Assembly (NCBI GenBank): GCA_035559815.1 | Contig: DATMAT010000029.1 | Span: forward strand, 2,485 to 66,484 | DNA: 64,000 bases | Direction: 5' to 3' | Source of the DNA: Thermodesulfobacteriota bacterium | GTDB lineage: Bacteria; Desulfobacterota_D; UBA1144; Nemesobacterales; CSP1-2 | Part shown: piece after piece, positions 4,805 through 59,298 of the stretch | How the letters are laid out: each line of letters starts with the position of its first letter | Position numbering within the stretch: position 1 is the stretch's first letter | The notes under the pieces: generated by a model | The model's input: only the letters and a program-made list of their open reading frames with translations | Database searches by the model: none | Told to the model about the DNA's origin: nothing | Translations under genes and position numbers: made by a program

Positions 4805-4816
4805 AAGAACGAAACT

Positions 4817-4935
4817 TAGCCACTAATTAACACAGATTAACACGAATAAAGATAAGTGAGATACATGATTCATGATATACAATGCAGGATTTATATGAAT
4901 ATTCTTACATGCATCCTGTATCGTGCTTCGTTCGA
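4817..4935. repeat. family F element (agccacNaat...acacgaat...catcctgNatcgtgcNtcg)
   Basis: similar copies at 23689-23805 and partial at 33765-33812. Confidence 0.5.
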
Positions 4936-5017
4936 CTGAGCTCACGACGAAGTCTTGCATCCTTTGTCTTTATTTGTGTTCATTCGCGGCTAAAACGAAA
5001 AAAAGGAGGATAAAGCA

Positions 5018-16057: not shown

Positions 16058-16226
16058 CGCCCCGATAGTATTATTTCTTGCCACGGGTTAACACTAGTAC
16101 ATTATCATTGCTAACGCGGTGAAGCAATCTCGTTTTTGGATTGCTTCGTCGCTATGCTCCTCGCAATGACAACTGAGACGGTATTATTGTAAGATTAAAG
16201 TTTATTAATAGTGGGAGTGACTTATC

Positions 16227-19668: not shown

Positions 19669-19849
19669 TTATGTTAATTAGTTTGCCACAAAGACACTAA
19701 GACACGAAGGAAAAATATGAGTTTCAAGAAGAATCCAGAGGTCAGAATACAGAATTTAGAAGTTTTTCCTTTTTACTTCTGACTCCTGGCCCCTGGATTC
19801 TATATTCTAACTTAGTGTCCTAATGCCTTAGCGGTTGATAGTTACGATA

Positions 19850-20584: not shown

Positions 20585-20765
20585 ATGTAATTACCTTCCG
20601 GTCATTGTGAGAGATACTTTGTTCACACTCAGCACGGGTCCCGTCTTGAAGCAATCTGACAGCAAGTGTCATTCCGAACGTACGTGAGGAATCTCAACGG
20701 ATTGCTTTGCTAATGCTGGCAATGACAACTTATTAATGCAATTAATATAATCGACATTCCTATCC

Positions 20766-23674: not shown

Positions 23675-23837
23675 ATTAGCCACGAAGGACAGAGAGGGCA
23701 CGAATGGACATAGACCAGGATCCAGGATACACGATGCATGATGAGTAGTTCATGAGGATTTTATCGGGCATCCTGCATCTTGAATCGTGCATCGGTTTAC
23801 TCAAGTGACTCTGTGCTCTCTTTGATTATAATAAAGT

Positions 23838-28975: not shown

Positions 28976-29359
28976 GTCATATTCGTGAGCAAGAAAAAAT
29001 GAAAGAGGAGAGTTGGGATTCCTCGGGCGTTATTGCGAGGGAGAGAAACGACCGAAGCAATCCCTTGAAAAAAGAGATTGCTTCTATAAAGCCAATTATC
29101 CTCTTGCTCTACCATGGGAAGAGGGAGAATTGTCGAAAATCCGCTCGCCCCGAAAGGAATAAAATCATACAATCCCAAGGATTGACAAAATACGTCTGGA
29201 ATCAGTCAATTTGACAATTTTTGTCGTAAAAATGGGGTAATTTGCGCAAAATGCTACTTCTGGGAGGGTGGATAAAGGTCGGATTTGTTGCATTTTGGTT
29301 AAAGAATATCTTGGCTTTTCAATAGATTGTATTATCATTAAAGAGCGAAACGGCAAGGT

Positions 29360-29418: not shown

Positions 29419-30009
29419 ATGTTTAAGTCAAGACTAGTTAGTAAGAAGGGCGAAAAGGGTTTTACCCTGATCGAGCTGTTGGTGGTCGCGGCCATCATCG
29501 GCATATTGCTTGCGATCGCTATTCCTAACCTTATCAAGGCTAGGATGTCCGCGAACGAGGCGAACGCGAGAAAAGCCATGCAAACTTTAAGGGATGCAGA
29601 AGGTGAGTACTTCGAGCAGGACCTGGATAATAATGGAACTAGGGACTACATCGATGAAATAGGTAACCTTACTGGTACTACGCCTTCTTTACGTGACCCT
29701 GAAGGCACTGCTGATGAGCAAGATGCGCTTGTAGACAGTAGTTTTGAGGGGGCAAGCGATACTGGGGGTGCTGATTGTAGTGATCCAAAGGCGGGATATT
29801 GCATTAGATGGGATGCTGCTGTCGTTGCCAATGCAGCTGGCCTTTTTGACGATTTTGGTTGGCAGTCAACTATGACTAGCTTTAACAAGGTTGGAAGAAG
29901 AGACTACGCAGTATACGGGGATGGAGTTATAAGATGTGACGTCAGCACATCAGGAGTCGGCCAACCTGGAACATTTGAAGTTGATCGGACTGACCCTGGT
30001 TGTGATTAA
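29419..30009 (+). CDS. type IV pilin-like protein (prepilin N-terminal methylation domain)
   Basis: KGFTLIELLVVAAIIGILLAIAIPNL class III signal; C-terminal Cys pair; TDPGCD end. Confidence 0.7.
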   Translation: MFKSRLVSKKGEKGFTLIELLVVAAIIGILLAIAIPNLIKARMSANEANARKAMQTLRDAEGEYFEQDLDNNGTRDYIDEIGNLTGTTPSLRDPEGTADEQDALVDSSFEGASDTGGADCSDPKAGYCIRWDAAVVANAAGLFDDFGWQSTMTSFNKVGRRDYAVYGDGVIRCDVSTSGVGQPGTFEVDRTDPGCD

Positions 30010-30531: not shown

Positions 30532-31125
30532 ATGTTTAATTTAGGTATAAATACTGAAAAAGGTTTCACCCTTATTGAACTCTTGGTAGTAGCAGCCATC
30601 ATCGGAATATTACTTGGTATAGCGATTCCAAACCTTATTAAAGCACGTCTTTCGGCTAATGAGTCTAATGCCAGAAAAGCCCTTCAGACTATTAGAGATG
30701 CAGAATATGAATATTCCGAACAAGACTTAGATGATAATGGCGCAAGAGATTATACTAACTTTATAGGTTCGTTGGGTGCGTCAGGTACTTTGCGTGATCC
30801 TTCCGGTACCAACGACGAACAAAATGCGCTTCTGGATATCACTTTTGAAGGTGCAGTAGTGAATGACGGAAATGCAGCGGCTACCGCCAATTGCACTGAC
30901 CCAAAGGCAGGATATTGCATTGGATGGAGTGGAGATGTTAACACCGATTCTACTACGCTAGCAGGTGATTTTGGTTGGGAGGCTTCTATGACAGGTGCTG
31001 GTAAGACCGGAAGAAAAGATTTTTCTGTTTTTGCCGACAAGGTTATCAAATGTATTGCTACTACCCAATCTAGTGGCAGCGCAGGACAATTTGAATCATC
31101 CCGTACCGACCCTGATTGTGATTGA
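30532..31125 (+). CDS. type IV pilin-like protein, paralogue of 29419-30009
   Basis: same N-terminal prepilin domain, conserved DPKAGYCI(R/G)W and TDPDCD C-terminus. Confidence 0.7.
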   Translation: MFNLGINTEKGFTLIELLVVAAIIGILLGIAIPNLIKARLSANESNARKALQTIRDAEYEYSEQDLDDNGARDYTNFIGSLGASGTLRDPSGTNDEQNALLDITFEGAVVNDGNAAATANCTDPKAGYCIGWSGDVNTDSTTLAGDFGWEASMTGAGKTGRKDFSVFADKVIKCIATTQSSGSAGQFESSRTDPDCD

Positions 31126-31292: not shown

Positions 31293-32222
31293 ATGCTCAA
31301 AGTAGAAAATCTCGTAAAGGACTTCGCCACCGGATTTCTGAGAAAGAAGGTTCGGGTGCTCAAAGGTGTGTCTTTCTCAGTGAACAAGGGAGAGATATTC
31401 GGTTTTGTCGGGCCCAATGGTGCGGGGAAAACCACGACGTTTAAAGTGGTTCTGGGTTTTGTCCCCATTACAGATGGAAATGTTGAATTGATGGGGAAGC
31501 CACTCGGTGATGTGGATGTAAAAAAGCACATAGGCTACCTCCCGGAGAATCCATATTTCTATGATTACCTTACGGGCGAGGAGCTTCTTCGATATATGGG
31601 AGAGTTGCATGGGCTAAATGGAAAAGGTCTCTCCGCAAGAATCGATGAGCTTCTGGAGAAGGTAAAAATGTCTCATGCCCGAAAGGTGCAGTTGAGAAAA
31701 TATTCAAAAGGTATGCTTCAGAGGGTGGGTGTTGCTCAGGCCCTTATAAATGACCCTGATTTTCTTATCCTTGACGAGCCTATGACCGGGCTTGACCCTA
31801 TCGGACAAAGAGAAATAAAGGACCTGATTCTAGAGGAAAAAAAGAGGGGAAAAACCATACTTCTCAGTTCCCACATGCTCTCCGATGTCGAGGCTTTATG
31901 CGATAGGGTGGGGGTGGTTATGAACGGGAAAGTAGTCAAGATTGGCGAGCTGGGGAAGCTGTTTGAAGAGATTCATACGGATTATGAGATGCTTCTCAAG
32001 GGTGTTGATGAAAGGATTATGAACAGCCTTAGCGACCTTAAAGTTTCAGTCGAAAAAAGAGCAGGATTTACTGTTCTCAGGTTCGACGAAGATATTAAGA
32101 CCAGGGTATTCCAGGTCGTCTCTGATTCCGGTGCGGATATCGTCTCGCTTCATCCTTTAAGAAAATCTCTCGAAGGACTCTTCGTTGAGGAAGCGAAGAA
32201 GGATGTTCATCTTGAATCATGA
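31293..32222 (+). CDS. ABC transporter ATP-binding protein
   Basis: Walker A GPNGAGKTT, signature YSKGMLQRVGVAQAL, Walker B LILDEP. Confidence 0.85.
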   Translation: MLKVENLVKDFATGFLRKKVRVLKGVSFSVNKGEIFGFVGPNGAGKTTTFKVVLGFVPITDGNVELMGKPLGDVDVKKHIGYLPENPYFYDYLTGEELLRYMGELHGLNGKGLSARIDELLEKVKMSHARKVQLRKYSKGMLQRVGVAQALINDPDFLILDEPMTGLDPIGQREIKDLILEEKKRGKTILLSSHMLSDVEALCDRVGVVMNGKVVKIGELGKLFEEIHTDYEMLLKGVDERIMNSLSDLKVSVEKRAGFTVLRFDEDIKTRVFQVVSDSGADIVSLHPLRKSLEGLFVEEAKKDVHLES

Positions 32223-32632
32223 ACCGGTTTAGCCACGAATCTACACAGATGAACACGAATGAAAAAGATATTTTATATAAAGAGCTTTCTTATAAAATAA
32301 TTGGATTAGATATGGAAGTGCATAATAAACTGGGTTATGGATTCTTAGAAAAAGTCTATGAAAACGCTCTACTGATATTGTTACCGCGTAAAGATATCGA
32401 AGCAAAACAACAAGCACCGATAAAGGTATATTTCGAGGGGGAGGTTGTGGGAAATTACTTCGCTGATATTTTAGTTGAGGATAAAATTATATTGGAAATT
32501 AAAGCTTTAGACAAAATAATAGATGTCTACATTGCGCAGACGTTGAACTACTTAAAAGCAACTGGATTACAGTTAGCAATCATCTTAAATTTTGGTAAGA
32601 AGAGATTAGAGTACGAAAGAATCGTTAACTAG
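32219..32632 (+). CDS. GxxExxY-family protein (likely true start ATG 32249)
   Basis: LGYGFLEKVYENAL = G-x-x-E-x-x-Y signature; about 125 aa. Confidence 0.65.
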   Translation: MNRFSHESTQMNTNEKDILYKELSYKIIGLDMEVHNKLGYGFLEKVYENALLILLPRKDIEAKQQAPIKVYFEGEVVGNYFADILVEDKIILEIKALDKIIDVYIAQTLNYLKATGLQLAIILNFGKKRLEYERIVN

Positions 32633-32672
32633 ACAAATTTTTATTCGTGTAAATTCGTGTTTATTTGTGGCT
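32231..32672. mobile_element. TIR-bounded mini-cassette carrying the GxxExxY gene
   Basis: left agccacgaatctacacagatgaacacgaat vs reverse complement of right attcgtgtaaattcgtgtttatttgtggct (about 70% inverted identity); inserted in the spacer between ABC ATPase and permease. Confidence 0.45.
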
Positions 32673-32686
32673 AAGTAATTGGAATC

Positions 32687-33490
32687 ATGAGCAGAGTCTG
32701 GAGCGTTGCACATAATACATTCATAGAAGCGGTCAGAGACAGGGTTCTCTACAGCTTAATCCTGTTTGCATTTTTGATGATTCTGAGTTCTCTTATCCTA
32801 GCCAGTATATCCGGGGAGCAATATAACAAGATTGTTAAGGACCTCGGATTTACCGTTATTTCGCTCATCGGGGTCATGATTTCGGTATTTCTGGGCATGG
32901 GGCTTGTCTATAAGGAAATTGAGAAGAAAACCGTTTATAACATCTTTTCAAAACCGATACACCGGTATGAGTTTGTCTTCGGCAAATATCTGGGCCTTGC
33001 TTTTACCCTCCTAGTAAACACTGCGGCCATGGCTGTTATTCTTTTCCTGCTGGTGCTGTACACGGAGTTAAGGCATGGAGATTTTATAAAGTTTTACTAT
33101 GGCGGACCATATTACGCCGAGTTTTTCAAAGCAGTTTATTTTATTTACCTTGAGTTTCTTATAATCATCGGGGTTGCTTTGGTATTTTCGAGCTTTACAA
33201 CCCCGGTAATGACGGTGCTCTTTACGTTTCTGGTAATTGCAATCGGAAGGTTTTCGAGTGATGTGAAGCTTTTTGCCGAACAGGTCAAAAATCCTGTGAC
33301 TGGATTTTTCACCGAGGTCATTTATAGGGTTATGCCAAATTTGGAAAAGTTTGATGTAAGGCGCGAGGCCGTGTATGGAGGGAATGTAAGTTGGGAGCTT
33401 ATTCTTAATACCACTGCCTATGCCTTGCTTTACACCTTAGCGCTGCTGTTACTTTCTATAATAATATTCCAGAAGAGGGAATTTAAATAA
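32687..33490 (+). CDS. ABC-2 type transporter permease
   Basis: six TM helices, 267 aa, follows ATPase. Confidence 0.6.
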   Translation: MSRVWSVAHNTFIEAVRDRVLYSLILFAFLMILSSLILASISGEQYNKIVKDLGFTVISLIGVMISVFLGMGLVYKEIEKKTVYNIFSKPIHRYEFVFGKYLGLAFTLLVNTAAMAVILFLLVLYTELRHGDFIKFYYGGPYYAEFFKAVYFIYLEFLIIIGVALVFSSFTTPVMTVLFTFLVIAIGRFSSDVKLFAEQVKNPVTGFFTEVIYRVMPNLEKFDVRREAVYGGNVSWELILNTTAYALLYTLALLLLSIIIFQKREFK

Positions 33491-33579
33491 ACATTATGCA
33501 AGATGCAAGAACAGCTTGTGAGTAATGTAATTGTCTTTACTTAGACCGTATTTGGTCAAAAATTTAAGAAATCAAATAC

Positions 33580-33696
33580 GCCCTTCGACAAGCTCAGGGC
33601 GAACGGTTATGGAGGTAGGCCGCTTATGCTGAGCCCTTTGTCCGATCTTCCCAGCGTGTCGAAGGATGAACGCTCAGGGCAAGCCTGTCGAAAGAA
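33580..33696. repeat. family A repeat
   Basis: cccttcgacaagctcagggcgaacgg...gtcgaaggatgaacgctcagggc. Confidence 0.7.
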
Positions 33697-33802
33697 GTAT
33701 GACTATTATGTATGGGGACCTATGCTGAAAATCATACGGTCTTTATAGGCAAATGGATATTACTTCCACAAATCATGAATCCTGCATCCTGCATCATTTG
33801 TA

Positions 33803-34873
33803 GTGGCTATGCTTGATACACTTGCAAAAAGACCAATCCTAGGACTTCTAGTTGTGTTTGCGCTGATTGTCGTCTCTATCCCTTTTCAGAAAAGGGTTGA
33901 CGATATAAGAGGTAATTTCAGAGCCATAGAGGAGACCCTCTACCTGACCTCATCCGCGCTTAAGAAAATCTCCTTTGGATACAAAGAAATAGTTGCAGAC
34001 ATCTATTGGCTAAGGGCAATTCAATACTTCGGCGGTAAAAAGATTAAAGAGCAAGATCCGGACCTTCTTTATAAATATTTCGATATACTTACCGATCTGG
34101 ACCCGCAGTTCGTGAATGCATACAGGTTTGGCGGTACGTTTCTGGCTGAACCGCCGCCTTATGGTTTAGGCGATATCGAGAAGGGGACAAAGCTATTCGA
34201 TAAAGGAAGGGAAAACAACCCGGACAACTTTAGAATCCCTCTTGAAGAGGCGTTTGTATATTATCTTTATGCTAAGGACTATGAGAAAGCGGCAGAGCTA
34301 TTTGACGAAGCATCGGAAAAACCCGGTCTCTCGCCTTTTCGCCGGGCATCGATAAAGGGAATGGCAGCATCTGCTCATACTTATGGCGGCAATAGAGAAC
34401 TGTCTAAAAAAATATGGAGAGAAATCTATGAAACCACGCCAAATGAAGGAAGAAAGAATTTTGCTTTCAGAAATCTACAAGAGCTAAATACCATGGATAT
34501 GGAAGACCGCTTGACCGAGGCTTTGAGGGAGTATGTCGAGCGTTATAACGAGCTACCGAAAAACCTGGAAGCCCTAAAAGACGCGGGCATCGTCAAACAA
34601 ATACCCAAGGAGCCACTCGGAGGAAAGTTTATCATAGCTAGTAAACTGAAAGCGGTAAAAAGCTCTACATTGGTGGGTCAACAATTAAACCAAAACCTGG
34701 CATTTTTATCATCTAGAATCCAAAAATTTAAGAAAGAGCATGGTCGGTATCCGAAAGATTTAAATGAGTTAAAAGAGTTTATAGAAAAAGATAGTACAGC
34801 ACAATTCCCAACAAATCCTTTGGGAGAAGATTATGTCTATAATCCGGAGAACGGTGTTATAGCCTCTAATTGA
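33803..34873 (+). CDS. membrane-anchored hypothetical protein (356 aa), helical/TPR-like
   Basis: N-terminal TM helix; rest predicted helical. Confidence 0.4.
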   Translation: MAMLDTLAKRPILGLLVVFALIVVSIPFQKRVDDIRGNFRAIEETLYLTSSALKKISFGYKEIVADIYWLRAIQYFGGKKIKEQDPDLLYKYFDILTDLDPQFVNAYRFGGTFLAEPPPYGLGDIEKGTKLFDKGRENNPDNFRIPLEEAFVYYLYAKDYEKAAELFDEASEKPGLSPFRRASIKGMAASAHTYGGNRELSKKIWREIYETTPNEGRKNFAFRNLQELNTMDMEDRLTEALREYVERYNELPKNLEALKDAGIVKQIPKEPLGGKFIIASKLKAVKSSTLVGQQLNQNLAFLSSRIQKFKKEHGRYPKDLNELKEFIEKDSTAQFPTNPLGEDYVYNPENGVIASN

Positions 34874-36072: not shown

Positions 36073-36411
36073 ATGTTCTGTCATTGCGAGGAGTTAAACG
36101 ACGAAGCAATCCCAGGCATTGCTATAATCGATCAACAATACTATGTATATATAATGACCAACAAAAACAATACTGTGCTCTACACGGGTGTTACAAACGA
36201 TTTAAAAAGAAGAGTTTATCAACATAGAGAAAAGTTAATAGATGGATTTACTAAAAGATATAATATCAATAAGTTGATATACTACGAGGTATTTGAGGAC
36301 ATACATAGTGCGATTTCAAGGGAAAAACAGATTAAGGCCGGTTCATGACAGAAAAAGATCGATCTCATTAATCGTATGAATAAAGGATGGAAAGACTTAT
36401 ACAGGGAATTA
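36073..36411 (+). pseudogene. GIY-YIG nuclease-family small protein with in-frame TGA at 36346-36348
   Basis: YYVYIMTNKNNTVLYTGVTNDLKRRVYQH...YYEVFEDIHSAISREKQIKAGS*QKKIDLINRMNKGWKDLYREL: the family's conserved tail continues in frame after the TGA; N-terminal 20 codons of the track ORF are repeat-encoded. Confidence 0.5.
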
Positions 36412-36483
36412 TGATGTTTTAAAGATAATAAACAGAAGCCAGAAGGTAATTTCAAGGGATTGCTTCACTACGTTCGCAATGAC
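36080..36483. mobile_element. mini-cassette: GIY-YIG gene flanked by inverted family B repeat units
   Basis: left gtcattgcgaggagttaaacgacgaagcaatccc (36080-36113), right gggattgcttcactacgttcgcaatgac (36456-36483) in opposite orientation. Confidence 0.4.
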
Positions 36484-36713
36484 AGAATTGGAAGATCTAT
36501 TGTTAGTGCCCTTCGGCAGGGTTTTAACAATAAGTCGGAGTGTTCGGAATACAATCTATGACCGAAGCAATCTACTTAGATTCCTCACGTTCTCCTTCGT
36601 CTTCGCTCAGGACTTGGTTCGGAATGACGACTTGTGTCAGATTGCCACGCTGCCAAAAGAAAGTGGCTTGCAATGACAGGTAGAATAGGTCATTCCAAGG
36701 ATGGTAAGCCGAG

Positions 36714-48157: not shown

Positions 48158-48261
48158 ATACGGTAAAGGAATTGCCACGGAGGTCACAGAGAAAGGGAAG
48201 AAAATCTATGCAAAAACTCGGTGTTATCTGTGGCTAGATAATTCTCAAGGAAGGAGTTAAC

Positions 48262-52550: not shown

Positions 52551-52725
52551 TTCCGTAAATTCGTGGAAATTTGACCGCAAATCAGCACGATTAGAAAAAT
52601 GGGTTTCAGTTTCGAGTTGACGAGTTTGCGGGTTGACGGGTTAAACTTCTAACCAGCAAACCTGATAGCAAGTAAACAATAACAACACATTTGTGTCCAT
52701 TCGTGCTAATTCGTGGCTGTATAAC

Positions 52726-58744: not shown

Positions 58745-58989
58745 CCCCGTGAGATAAGTTTTACTATCCAACGGGTTGAGATACGCAGTGGTATTAACCC
58801 ACGAAACGAGGGTCTCTCAGGTCTCACGGAATTATCTCTTGGGGTTAATACTGCTTTCCAAAAAATTAGAAACCAGTGGTTCACACTCGCAAACAAGGAC
58901 TTTAGATAGGTAAAAAGTCTTTTTAAAATCAGGTTTACTTTTCTATGTTTGTTATGCAAGTGCTGTTCCAACCCTATTCGTTGAAATTG

Positions 58990-59165
58990 CCTTTTTAACC
59001 CTGCTCACCCTTCGTCTCCGCTCAGGGTGAAGGGCATGGTATTGCTTGGAGTTTTAGACCTGCCTTCATGGTGAGCGGAGTCGAACCATGAGTAGTTCGA
59101 TTGCGCTCAAAGCCTGTCCTGAGGAATAAACTCAGTCGAACCATGGACCCTTCTAAGCATAATCT
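58990..59165. repeat. family A repeat cluster
   Basis: near-copy of 57720-57870. Confidence 0.7.
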
Positions 59166-59298
59166 CGTTTTTTCAATGGATTGCTTCGTCGCTTTGCTCC
59201 TCGCAATGACACCCAGGAAATGGCGACTCTTCTCTCTGACTCCACGCGAAGCAATCTTTTAATTTCGGACAAGGTTGACCGCTACAAATGATGGCTTA

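Follow-up and report, generated by a model that had tools for sequence, protein, structure and literature searches.

GxxExxY genes probably ride on a not yet described tiny mobile element: a cassette at an ABC operon junction of a Thermodesulfobacteriota bacterium

Results

Architecture of the ATPase/permease junction

The analysed stretch of 64,000 nucleotides, hereafter the window, contains an ABC transporter operon with genes for an ATP-binding protein (31293..32222, plus strand, 309 aa) and an ABC-2 type permease (32687..33490, plus strand, 267 aa). Between these two host genes lies a cassette of 446 bp (32229-32674) with a single small gene. The left terminal inverted repeat (TIR; 32229..32265, plus strand, 37 nt) consists of the terminus TTAGC and three heptamers at 10-nt spacing, namely CACGAAT (32234-32240), CACAGAT (32244-32250) and CACGAAT (32254-32260). 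The right TIR (32638..32674, minus strand, 37 nt) has the terminus GCTAA (32670-32674), and its heptamers, read on the minus strand, are CACAAAT (32663-32669), CACGAAT (32653-32659) and CACGAAT (32643-32649).

The annotated ORF (32219-32632, plus strand) encodes 137 aa. As originally predicted, it overlaps the stop codon of the ATPase gene: its ATG at 32219 forms an ATGA with this stop and shares its reading frame with the cassette gene. The distance from the ORF end to the permease ATG at 32687 is 54 nt. A further ATG, at 32249, is built from the second heptamer of the left TIR and the adjoining spacer; homologues of 127 aa begin at this position, which delimits a core GxxExxY ORF (32249..32632, plus strand, 127 aa) for a PD-(D/E)xK nuclease. 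The earlier claim that the left TIR supplies the start codon holds for the internal ATG, and such an ATG is a trait of the whole family, but it does not hold for the annotated ATG, which lies outside the TIR. The codon at 32249, inside the left array, is the likely start, while at the window locus translation may in fact begin at the in-frame ATG further upstream, which overlaps the stop codon of the ATPase gene.

The terminal codons of the ATPase gene (~32206-32222, encoding VHLES and the stop) are unlike those of relatives with an empty site. A short repeat accompanies the junction on both sides. Its left copy, GAATCATGA(AC) (32214..32224, plus strand), holds the ATPase stop and the overlapping ATG 32219, and its right copy, GAATCATGA (32682..32690, plus strand), includes the start codon of the permease. 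Neither a convincing promoter or terminator of the cassette's own nor any terminator-like site was found at the locus, and the sole match of an Rfam search of the window was a cobalamin riboswitch located elsewhere.

The GxxExxY protein

The assignment of the 137-aa ORF to the GxxExxY family, first proposed from its G-F-L-E-K-V-Y signature, was confirmed with the profile TIGR04256 (131 bits, cut-off 35, model positions 1-116 of 116). PF13366 (PDDEXK_3) was matched with 124.6 bits (cut-off 22); no other family, and hence no transposase of a recognised family, was matched by the cassette ORF. The signature corresponds to G31-F-L-E34-K-V-Y37, and the conserved residues of the core protein are E34, Y37, D73, E83, K85, Q97 and Y101. 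The residues E34, Y37, D73, E83 and K85 are all invariant in an alignment of 12 members; among 52 diverse members, this is still true of Y37 and D73, and conservation of E34, E83 and K85 is 90% or higher. We take the motif set E...D...ExK...QxxxY to be common with Cas4/RecB nucleases. The predicted fold is likewise Cas4/RecB-like, similar to the nuclease domains of these enzymes, and a sequence search of PDB chains gave no significant match. No cysteine occurs in the 127-aa sequence. Among the alleles at the ABC-junction locus, a dN/dS of ~0.07 (0.06-0.08) indicates purifying selection. As modelled, the nuclease is active-looking with its full active site kept; its enzymology is inferred.

Many paralogues per genome are a trait of the TIGR04256/PF13366 family, of which the window holds one copy only. 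The family comprises 14,327 clusters at 50% identity (E-values up to 0.001). A phage or defence origin found no support, with zero matches in 50,697 phage records, PHROGs and PADLOC, and only eight plasmid or chromid records matched. The function of the family is still listed as unknown (PMC3424549).

Inverted repeats within the window

The imperfect inverted repeats that had been predicted to flank the gene are the two 37-nt arms described above, which are 78% complementary and score well above background (ungapped score of 19; shuffled flanks, median 9, 95th percentile 12.3). The pattern CACGAAT-N(1-14)-CACGAAT occurs three times in the window and in none of 100 shuffles. A TIR profile trained solely on the arms of GxxExxY genes from other phyla picked exactly 32230-32260 (plus), 32673-32643 (minus), 4817-4847 (plus) and 52718-52689 (minus), with E-values from 6e-6 to 1e-7. 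Joined and folded as RNA, the window arms form a stem of -37 kcal/mol (z = -9).

Solo copies of the same ends had been reported at 4817-4850, 23689-23720 and 52699-52717. Matching ends are present in all three regions, but they belong to larger ORF-less elements. The first is the left end of an element of 178 bp (4816..4993, plus strand) with CACGAAT-type ends at 4816-4850 on the left and ~4958-4993 on the right; its inner tandem CANGAT heptamers resemble the ends of the four-helix-bundle cassettes treated below. The second in fact starts at 23676 and has a decayed partner: the element (23676..23830, plus strand) has a left end TTAGCCACGAAGG...CACGAAT, a right end that has decayed, and internal tandem arrays of CAGGAT/CACGAT/CATGAT in inverted orientation. 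The third is the minus-strand end of an element located 5' of a truA-like gene (52573..52718, minus strand), where an array of two CACGAAT and one CACAAAT (52689-52718) faces a degenerate partner arm (52573-52594). The window further contains an ORF-less inverted-repeat element with the variant words CACAAAG/CACTAAG/CACGAAG (19682..19831, plus strand; DNA hairpin z = -3.4), a mini-hairpin of 65 bp between two genes with GCCAC ends and CACGGAG/CACAGAG words (48174..48238, plus strand), and a small palindrome that has CCAC...GTGG at its ends, contains CANGAT words and adjoins the start of the next gene on its upstream side (33765..33810, plus strand).

Occurrence of the gene-plus-array unit across phyla

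A genome scan with a 12-sequence alignment yielded a survey set of 79 GxxExxY loci, which span more than 15 phyla of bacteria and archaea and in which the unit of gene and arrays stands in unrelated contexts. At most of these loci the flanking inverted repeats exceed the shuffled background (median score 20, against 9 for shuffled flanks). Three or more phased CRCNRAT heptamers were present on both sides at 32 of 83 loci, compared with 6 of 277 control windows having them on one side. When the two arms of an element are compared, identity is 93% at heptamer positions and 64% across the spacers, whose first two bases agree about as often as expected by chance. Arm mismatches lack a G-U bias (47, against 43 A-C) and thus give no sign of selection for RNA pairing; the heptamer words are kept as sequence across phyla, not through compensatory change. 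The heptamer type co-varies with protein similarity (57.6% vs 50.4% identity; 0 of 2000 permutations), and ORF-less doublets of the matching word were found near GxxExxY genes. Cassettes lying between co-directional ORFs are oriented in sense in 35 cases and in antisense in four.

Occupancy of the junction in related genomes

In more distant relatives (permease identity of at most 76%), the ATPase and permease genes abut or overlap in nearly all cases. Empty junctions, which the reading as a miniature mobile cassette had called for, were found at loci L020-L024 and L113 and at ~25 further metagenome loci. In closer relatives, the junction is either unoccupied or holds one of several inserts: a GxxExxY allele with other heptamers, a GIY-YIG gene, a gene for a four-helix-bundle protein of the kind encoded in 23S rRNA intervening sequences (IVSs), or a remnant without an ORF. 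On the permease tree the outgroups are empty and the inner clade is a patchwork of the states GxxExxY-CACGAAT, GxxExxY-CACAGAT, GIY-YIG, four-helix-bundle, ORF-less and empty, with sister lineages differing from each other. Wherever a GxxExxY gene occurs at the junction its TIRs are kept; a gene at this position without TIRs, or TIRs no better than background, would have refuted the original prediction, and neither was the case. At loci L108 and L146, a gene of the IVS-protein family (PF05635/TIGR02436) resides in a heptamer-ended cassette at the ABC junction. The ends of the four-helix-bundle cassettes have the GCCAC terminus and CACGAAT-like outer words in common with the GxxExxY ends, and the GIY-YIG cassettes carry a wholly different inverted repeat.

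The comparison with the near-identical relative L017 reveals a swap. The flanks of the two loci share 95-98.5% aa identity (permease 98.5% aa, dS 0.35), whereas the cassettes are only 74% identical, with saturated dS and the heptamer switched on both arms to CACAGAT in L017. Homology stops at 32224 and returns at ~32697, and the swapped segment (32224..32696, strand not assigned) takes in the permease ATG plus three codons. Relative to L012, in contrast, cassette and flanks co-diverge, all at ~80%. In comparison with L012 and L145, the window allele appears to have been inherited vertically, and given this co-divergence the window copy may now be inactive. The empty sites, the other cassettes at the same junction and the swap against L017 bear out the mobile-cassette reading and establish the mobility of the cassette, its enzymology being inferred. 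Judged from these sequence comparisons, the junction has long been a hotspot at which cassettes turn over, not the site of a recent one-off insertion.

Across 50 loci of the family, no excess of target-site duplications was detected over mismatched-pair controls. The two copies of GAATCATGA in the window (32214-22 and 32682-90) were considered as a duplication of an ATGA overlap in the ancestral junction. The overlap predicted by this reading is indeed present in empty relatives, but the family-wide signal is absent and the matter was left unresolved. On the other strand, ATCTTGAATCATGA reads as two tandem CANGAT words like those in the arms of four-helix-bundle cassettes. The local repeat of 9-11 nt, GAATCATGA(AC), is ambiguous between a duplication and left-over heptamer units.

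Discussion

Comparison with described elements

A description of such cassettes was not found in the literature searched, which did not cover subscription journals. The intervening sequences (IVSs) of the 23S rRNA with S23p/four-helix-bundle ORFs, known from Leptospira, Coxiella and others, resemble the cassette in having ~430-760 bp with one small ORF between terminal inverted repeats (PMC4990558). In these IVSs heptameric repeats, GACAGAT in Coxiella, directly precede the ATG (PMC4990558), an arrangement that the window cassette also displays. Both lack a strong ribosome-binding site of their own and are transcribed within a host transcript, and the origin and mobility of the IVSs are unexplained. 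The cassette differs in encoding a PD-(D/E)xK nuclease instead of a four-helix bundle, in residing at an mRNA intergenic junction instead of helix 45 of the 23S rRNA, and in spacing its heptamers by 10 nt, where those of the IVSs are in tandem. Excision by RNase III is known for the IVSs; for the cassette there is only a predicted stem, without a pairing-specific substitution bias.

REP/REPIN sequences and their RAYT genes offer a second parallel: one gene is flanked by inverted short repeats that are also scattered intergenically as ORF-less inverted doublets able to fold into hairpins, without target duplication. RAYTs, however, are HUH tyrosine transposases that are usually single-copy and vertically inherited, whereas GxxExxY proteins are PD-(D/E)xK enzymes spread horizontally across phyla; an HUH (Y1) transposase gene is absent from the cassette, whose repeats are phased heptamer arrays in place of a GTAG/CGTC-tagged palindrome. 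With insertion sequences and MITEs the cassette shares terminal inverted repeats, empty versus filled sites and ORF-less derivatives with common ends. Several binding-site-like repeats per end, as in the cassette, are also a feature of Mu, Tn7 and IR/DR elements. It has, however, neither a transposase of a known family nor a regular target duplication, and 446 bp with a protein of 127 aa is all it comprises. Compared to Cas4/RecB nucleases, the GxxExxY protein is about half the size and lacks the Fe-S cysteine cluster, and its neighbours are an ABC ATPase and a permease, not cas genes. Free-standing homing endonuclease genes, such as small GIY-YIG genes, are similar in that close relatives may have or lack a small nuclease gene at a precise intergenic site, and a GIY-YIG gene indeed alternates with GxxExxY at one site; such genes, in contrast, have no bounding inverted repeats and leave no ORF-less hairpin derivatives.

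A selfish cassette and its alternatives

We consider it probable, at roughly 0.6, that the GxxExxY gene is part of a selfish cassette that is bounded by TIRs, lacks a promoter and encodes a nuclease acting on the cassette's own heptamer arrays; the enzymology is inferred, and no biochemical link between protein and heptamers has yet been established. According to this proposal, the 446-bp cassette would have entered the ATPase/permease junction in an ancestor of the lineage, the original state being a stop/start overlap. It comprises one gene and two inverted ends, each with the terminus TT(A)A(G/A)C and, next to it, three (A)CRCNRAT words in 10-bp phase. The gene product, a putative Cas4/RecB-like PD-(D/E)xK nuclease of ~125 aa under strong purifying selection, would be expressed by readthrough of the host operon in the absence of an own promoter, and at the window locus its translation is probably coupled, with initiation at the ATGA shared with the stop codon of the ATPase gene. 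Multiple nuclease molecules may then bind the phased heptamers of both ends, either as double-stranded DNA or as a folded-back hairpin or cruciform, and cut at or near the termini. Such cuts are inferred to help the cassette, and likewise ORF-less elements whose words match, to be copied or relocated; the route, conceivably break-repair/homing or a hairpin-based reaction, would not produce a regular target duplication. The cassette anatomy, the empty sites, the replacements at the junction, the ORF-less derivatives elsewhere and the co-travel of gene and heptamer type across phyla have been observed, whereas the movement of the element by the nuclease itself is an inference. Since no target duplication rises above background at the 50 loci, the insertion chemistry is unknown. 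Nucleases of the Cas4/RecB type are known as end- and ssDNA-processing enzymes, not as transposases, which counts against the proposal, and a mechanism based on the element's own nuclease cannot fit every member of the guild, as a similar cassette at the same site carries a non-nuclease, four-helix-bundle gene.

This last point is the strength of an unlikely alternative, in which the cassette is cargo moved in trans: an unlinked recombinase or nuclease, belonging to the host or to another element, would recognise the arrays, and the GxxExxY, GIY-YIG and four-helix-bundle genes would be interchangeable passengers kept for a different benefit, for example addiction, defence or repair. The presence at one junction of similar hairpin-ended cassettes with three small genes that are unrelated and include a non-nuclease, the terminus and outer words shared by four-helix-bundle and GxxExxY ends, and the lack of both a target duplication and a recognisable transposase would all fit. 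The tracking of GxxExxY phylogeny by heptamer type across host phyla is nevertheless what co-evolution, or at least joint travel, would lead one to expect; the entirely different inverted repeat of the GIY-YIG cassettes denies a single common end; and strong purifying selection with an intact nuclease active site, together with the absence of matches in defence and phage libraries, also speaks against mere passengers.

Even less probable is a role of the repeats mainly as RNA, with the arms pairing in the transcript as stem modules made of heptamers, RNase III cutting, and the cassette RNA being excised so that ATPase and permease messages are separated. The stability of the joined arms (-37 kcal/mol, z = -9), the strong sense-orientation bias within operons and the IVS-protein gene at this very junction in relatives are all compatible with it, as are the closest described elements, the 23S IVSs, in which inverted repeats enclose an ORF, heptameric repeats precede its ATG and RNase III performs the excision (PMC4990558). 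The good stem notwithstanding, an RNA-only role was downgraded: G-U and A-C mismatches show no asymmetry (47 vs 43), complementarity amounts to 93% at heptamers and lies close to the random level at the first two bases of the spacer, and the words are sequence-conserved across phyla without compensatory change. It would also leave insertion, turnover and ORF-less copies unexplained and is at best an added property that makes insertions tolerable. A stable, functional gene of the ABC operon, with palindromes as ordinary regulatory or terminator-like sequence and nothing mobile, could account for the low dN/dS and for the matching gene and ends in several related lineages with a divergence similar to the flanks. 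It is hardly credible, being already contradicted by a junction that is empty, with overlapping ATPase and permease genes, in most relatives and occupied by unrelated genes or ORF-less remnants in close ones; the unrelated contexts in which more than 15 phyla carry the unit and the missing terminator-like site likewise oppose it.

Implications

Beyond the selfish cassette at this locus, we tentatively extend the interpretation, at less than even odds, to the family as a whole. GxxExxY genes would mark an undescribed pan-prokaryotic miniature mobile element, in which a minimal Cas4/RecB-like nuclease recognises the phased arrays at both ends and brings about movement of the element without target duplication; together with the GIY-YIG and four-helix-bundle cassettes it would form one guild of hairpin-ended operon parasites, and the 23S rRNA IVSs would be members that landed in rRNA. 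If true, this would account for where the IVSs come from, whose origin and mobility have remained unexplained for ~30 years; an IVS-protein cassette does alternate with a nuclease cassette at one site. For GxxExxY proteins, a gene-plus-phased-array unit that turns over at a defined operon junction provides a concrete, testable mechanism. For annotation, it is of practical note that translated TIR sequence makes up the N-terminal codons of these proteins as well as many odd 'hypothetical' peptides. In the host, such cassettes reshape stop/start overlaps and gene termini within operons. The widespread GxxExxY family thus probably rides on a not yet described, tiny mobile element, one that is related to rRNA intervening sequences.

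The GxxExxY gene and its ends

The 137-aa ORF at 32219-32632 (forward strand) lies between the genes of an ABC ATPase (31293-32222) and an ABC-2 permease (32687-33490) in a Thermodesulfobacteriota MAG, whose relatives carry the label Candidatus Dadabacteria; NCBI contains an identical protein. It matches TIGR04256 'GxxExxY protein' with 131 bits (cut-off 35) and PF13366 (PDDEXK_3) with 124.6 bits, and is enclosed by two terminal inverted repeat (TIR) arms of 37 nt (32229-32265 and 32638-32674; 78% complementary). The original prediction of a TIR-bounded gene of this family between ATPase and permease is thus confirmed. Each arm consists of a TTAGC terminus and three heptamers spaced exactly 10 nt: CACGAAT, CACAGAT and CACGAAT on the left and, read inwards, CACAAAT, CACGAAT and CACGAAT on the right. 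The doublet CACGAAT-N(1-14)-CACGAAT occurs three times in the window and in none of 100 shuffles, placing the repeat above background. No convincing promoter or terminator of its own was found in the cassette. In three independent alleles (the window and the related loci L017 and L145) the reading frame of the ORF extends back across the TIR to an ATG that overlaps the stop codon of the ATPase (ATGA), and translation at this junction is probably coupled to the ATPase. Directly upstream of the operon lie two paralogous type IV pilin-like genes (N_methyl, PF07963; 196 and 197 aa; 29419-30009 and 30532-31125), an order kept in related loci (L017, L019-L023), empty-junction ones among them.

Turnover at the ABC junction

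Permease homologues were followed to their contigs, and a metagenome scan gave 47 more loci, 43 of them scorable at the junction. In nearly all distant relatives (permease identity ≤76%) the ATPase and permease genes overlap by 4 or 8 nt or are separated by 1-48 nt. These overlapping or near-abutting junctions are the empty sites to be expected of an insertion, and within the clade containing the window (permease identity ≥80%) L113 likewise carries nothing. The other clade members differ in what they carry. A GxxExxY gene is flanked by CACGAAT arrays in the window, L145 and L002-L016, and by CACAGAT arrays at both ends in L017/L105 and L112. In L019, L107, L109-L111 and L114 the junction is occupied by a small GIY-YIG gene, enclosed by an inverted repeat of quite another kind, GTCATTGCGAGG...CGAAGCAATC, and ORF-less remnants of this type are present in L106, L115 and L116. 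L108 and L146 have a four-helix-bundle gene matching TIGR02436 (91.9 bits) and PF05635 '23S rRNA-intervening sequence protein' (98.2 bits). An ORF-less version of the four-helix-bundle type occurs just outside the clade (L123, 76% permease identity). The states are interleaved in the permease tree, sister lineages being unlike, and by our own count at least about seven changes are needed.

The most clear-cut comparison is that of the window with L017. Amino acid identity is 94.8% for the ATPase, 98.5% for the permease (dS 0.35) and 74.2% for the cassette protein (dS saturated); the TIR heptamer differs on both arms, and homology stops at 32224 and restarts at about 32697. From L012 and L145, cassette and flanks of the window have diverged in step (~80%), which argues that the window copy is an old resident and no fresh arrival. 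The earlier interpretation of a cassette inserted into an operon spacer is supported with this correction, and with the further one that the cassette has been replaced over time.

Some junctions hold additional sequence. In L017 (2893-2950; likewise L018 and L112) another left-oriented array, GCCATAAATTACATAGATGAACACAAATG, lies between the stop of the CACAGAT-type gene and the true right arm and looks like the remnant of a nested or abutting element, and in L118 (1225-1722) hairpins such as gctgaacttgtttcagc and cctgaaatatattcagg occupy the junction. The final ATPase codons of the window (…HLES*, 32206-32222) read on the minus strand as TCATGATTCAAGATG, two tandem CANGAT heptamers resembling the arms of the four-helix-bundle cassette. 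Because of this reading and of the different ATPase C-terminus in empty-site relatives (…KKDDSK*), the tail may be left-over element sequence, and the GAATCATGA 'duplication' may be made of repeat units and not of a duplicated target site.

Related elements in the window

A profile based solely on TIR arms that flank GxxExxY genes of other phyla matched 32230-32260 (+), 32673-32643 (-), 4817-4847 (+) and 52718-52689 (-) with E-values of 6e-6 to 1e-7, and no fifth site at E <0.05 in the 64 kb. The ends at 4817 and 52718, predicted as solo copies, are real but belong to ORF-less elements, one of 178 bp (right end ~4958-4993) and one at 52573-52718 (minus strand). A third supposed solo copy (23689-23720) is a left end, starting at 23676, that has a decayed partner. 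Mini-elements with variant words are present at 19682-19831, 48174-48238 and 33765-33810. Folded as single strands, they form imperfect hairpins (z -0.7 to -3.4). The window elements at 4816-4993, 23676-23830 and 33765-33810 share the composite make-up of the ends of the four-helix-bundle cassette of L108.

The window also contains a mini-cassette of the type occupying the junction in L019 (36073-36484). Its 91-aa GIY-YIG ORF (PF01541, 64.7 bits) starts inside the left of two inverted repeats (GTCATTGCGAGGAG..CGACGAAGCAATC, 36080-36112; GGATTGCTTCAC..CGCAATGAC, 36458-36484). ORF-less copies of this repeat type are found at ~16120-16148, 20647-20709, 29030-29085, 36563-36572 and 59179-59256, and CGAAGCAATC (≤1 mismatch) occurs 16 times against 4.2 expected, with 0 of 100 shuffles reaching 16. 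Small hairpin repeats of several kinds are dense in this genome, among them further short palindromic intergenic families at ~33560-33700 and ~58980-59130 (e.g. gcccttcgacaagctcagggcgaacgg, ggtgagcggagtcgaaccatgag). At the gathering score, Rfam matches the window only with a cobalamin riboswitch (RF00174, 2658-2851, 108.8 bits).

Architecture across the family

A scan with one genome per species yielded 80 GxxExxY loci from Planctomycetota, Acidobacteriota, Betaproteobacteria, Omnitrophota, Cloacimonadota, Fusobacteriota, Bacteroidota, Chloroflexota, Methanosarcinales and others. The inverted-repeat score of a gene's own up- and downstream flanks has a median of 20 (shuffled median 9, 95th percentile 12.3). 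In 32 of 83 loci each flank has at least three heptamers at 9-11-nt spacing; of 277 control windows, only 6 have them on one side. The word is CRCNRAT (CACGAAT, CGCAGAT, CACAGAT, CGCGGAT, CGCCGAT, CACGAAA and others). When both arms of an element are aligned at their first word, identity between them is 93% for heptamer positions and 64% for spacer positions. Similarity fades 5-6 nt outside this word, in a stretch with the consensus TT(T/A)A(G/A)C. That the left TIR supplies the ATG, as originally proposed, holds for about half of the family loci, where the start codon lies within the innermost left repeats (e.g. ...CAGATGAAC...) and accounts for database N-termini such as MNTNE.., MNAD.. and FSHExTQM..; at the ABC junction the ATPase-overlapping ATG is probably used instead.

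The type of heptamer follows the similarity of the proteins (57.6% vs 50.4% identity; 0 of 2000 permutations), and proteins that are 60-75% identical share one word in different phyla, from which we infer that gene and ends move together as a single unit. Cassettes between co-directional ORFs are mostly in sense orientation (35 vs 4 antisense, crude ORF calls), and ORF-less doublets of the same word are common beside GxxExxY genes. Convergent CACGAAT/CACAAAA arrays also enclose other ORFs (L029 944-1945, L032 2887-3602, L061 2083-2474) that match nothing in Pfam or NCBIfam. One, whose truncated translation gives a length of at least 200 aa, adjoins the GxxExxY gene in two loci, and another is a Cys-rich ORF of 73 aa; they are possibly further cargo types.

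The GxxExxY protein

The family comprises 14,327 clusters at 50% identity (E-values up to 0.001). In an alignment of 52 diverse members Y37 and D73 never vary, and E34, E83, K85, Q97 and Y101 each reach a conservation of 90% or more; these last five are invariant among 12 members. The resulting E...D...ExK...QxxxY set is that of RecB/Cas4-type nucleases. The protein lacks cysteines and therefore an Fe-S cluster. Alleles at the ABC junction have dN/dS values of 0.06-0.08. In the structure model the first four residues are disordered (pLDDT <50) and the first helix begins at residue 11. No match was found in defence libraries, phage libraries or phage genomes, nor by sequence in the PDB, and the gene is rare on plasmids. 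Among the top 150 cluster representatives, about 20 (P0242-P0244, P0249, P0253 and others) contain two tandem GxxExxY domains (250-277 aa) and may be fused neighbouring cassettes.

Known systems and possible mechanism

The closest described objects are the intervening sequences (IVSs) of 23S rRNA genes, in which an S23p/four-helix-bundle ORF is flanked by terminal inverted repeats; in Coxiella, tandem GACAGAT heptamers immediately precede the ATG (PMC4990558). RNase III cuts IVSs out, and neither their origin nor their mobility is known (PMC4990558). The ends of the four-helix-bundle cassette at the ABC junction of L108 combine an outer GCCAC terminus and CACGAAT-like words with inner tandem CANGAT heptamers. 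A gene flanked by a repeat that is also dispersed recalls RAYT/REPIN systems, and the arrangement also resembles IS/MITE pairs, but the RAYT and IS enzymes and, for the latter, target duplications are missing. An IS element, Cas4 or a RAYT system was not accepted as the identity of the cassette. A 2012 survey of PD-(D/E)xK proteins lists PF13366 as of unknown function and as transferred several times between bacteria and archaea (PMC3424549), and no description of these cassettes was found in the literature searched.

The empty sites contradict a fixed operon gene. The unit could instead be cargo mobilised in trans, in keeping with a non-nuclease four-helix-bundle cassette at the same junction. 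Its arms could also form an RNA stem processed by RNase III, as in rRNA IVSs; joined, they fold at -37 kcal/mol, but their mismatches show no G-U bias (47 vs 43). We favour the nuclease as the element's own enzyme, an inference drawn because sequence and not pairing is conserved, the words track the protein and the active site is under selection. The enzyme would bind to the phased words, of which each end presents three on one helix face; alternatively, folded-back arms would give 8-bp helices with small loops between. Confidence is high for mobility and architecture and moderate for action of the nuclease on its own arrays, which is inferred without binding or cleavage data; for both combined we estimate a probability of about 0.6. 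No regular target duplication was found across the family loci, which points away from classical staggered-cut transposition. Movement may proceed by break-and-repair copying or a hairpin-based route, the reaction itself not being known.

The cassette is assigned to TIGR04256/PF13366 and classed as a miniature hairpin-ended selfish element, in a variant that the searched literature does not describe. Sequence comparison shows a compact unit of gene and ends that enters short intra-operon spacers, has been exchanged there in the course of time, has passed from phylum to phylum and has left behind copies without an ORF.
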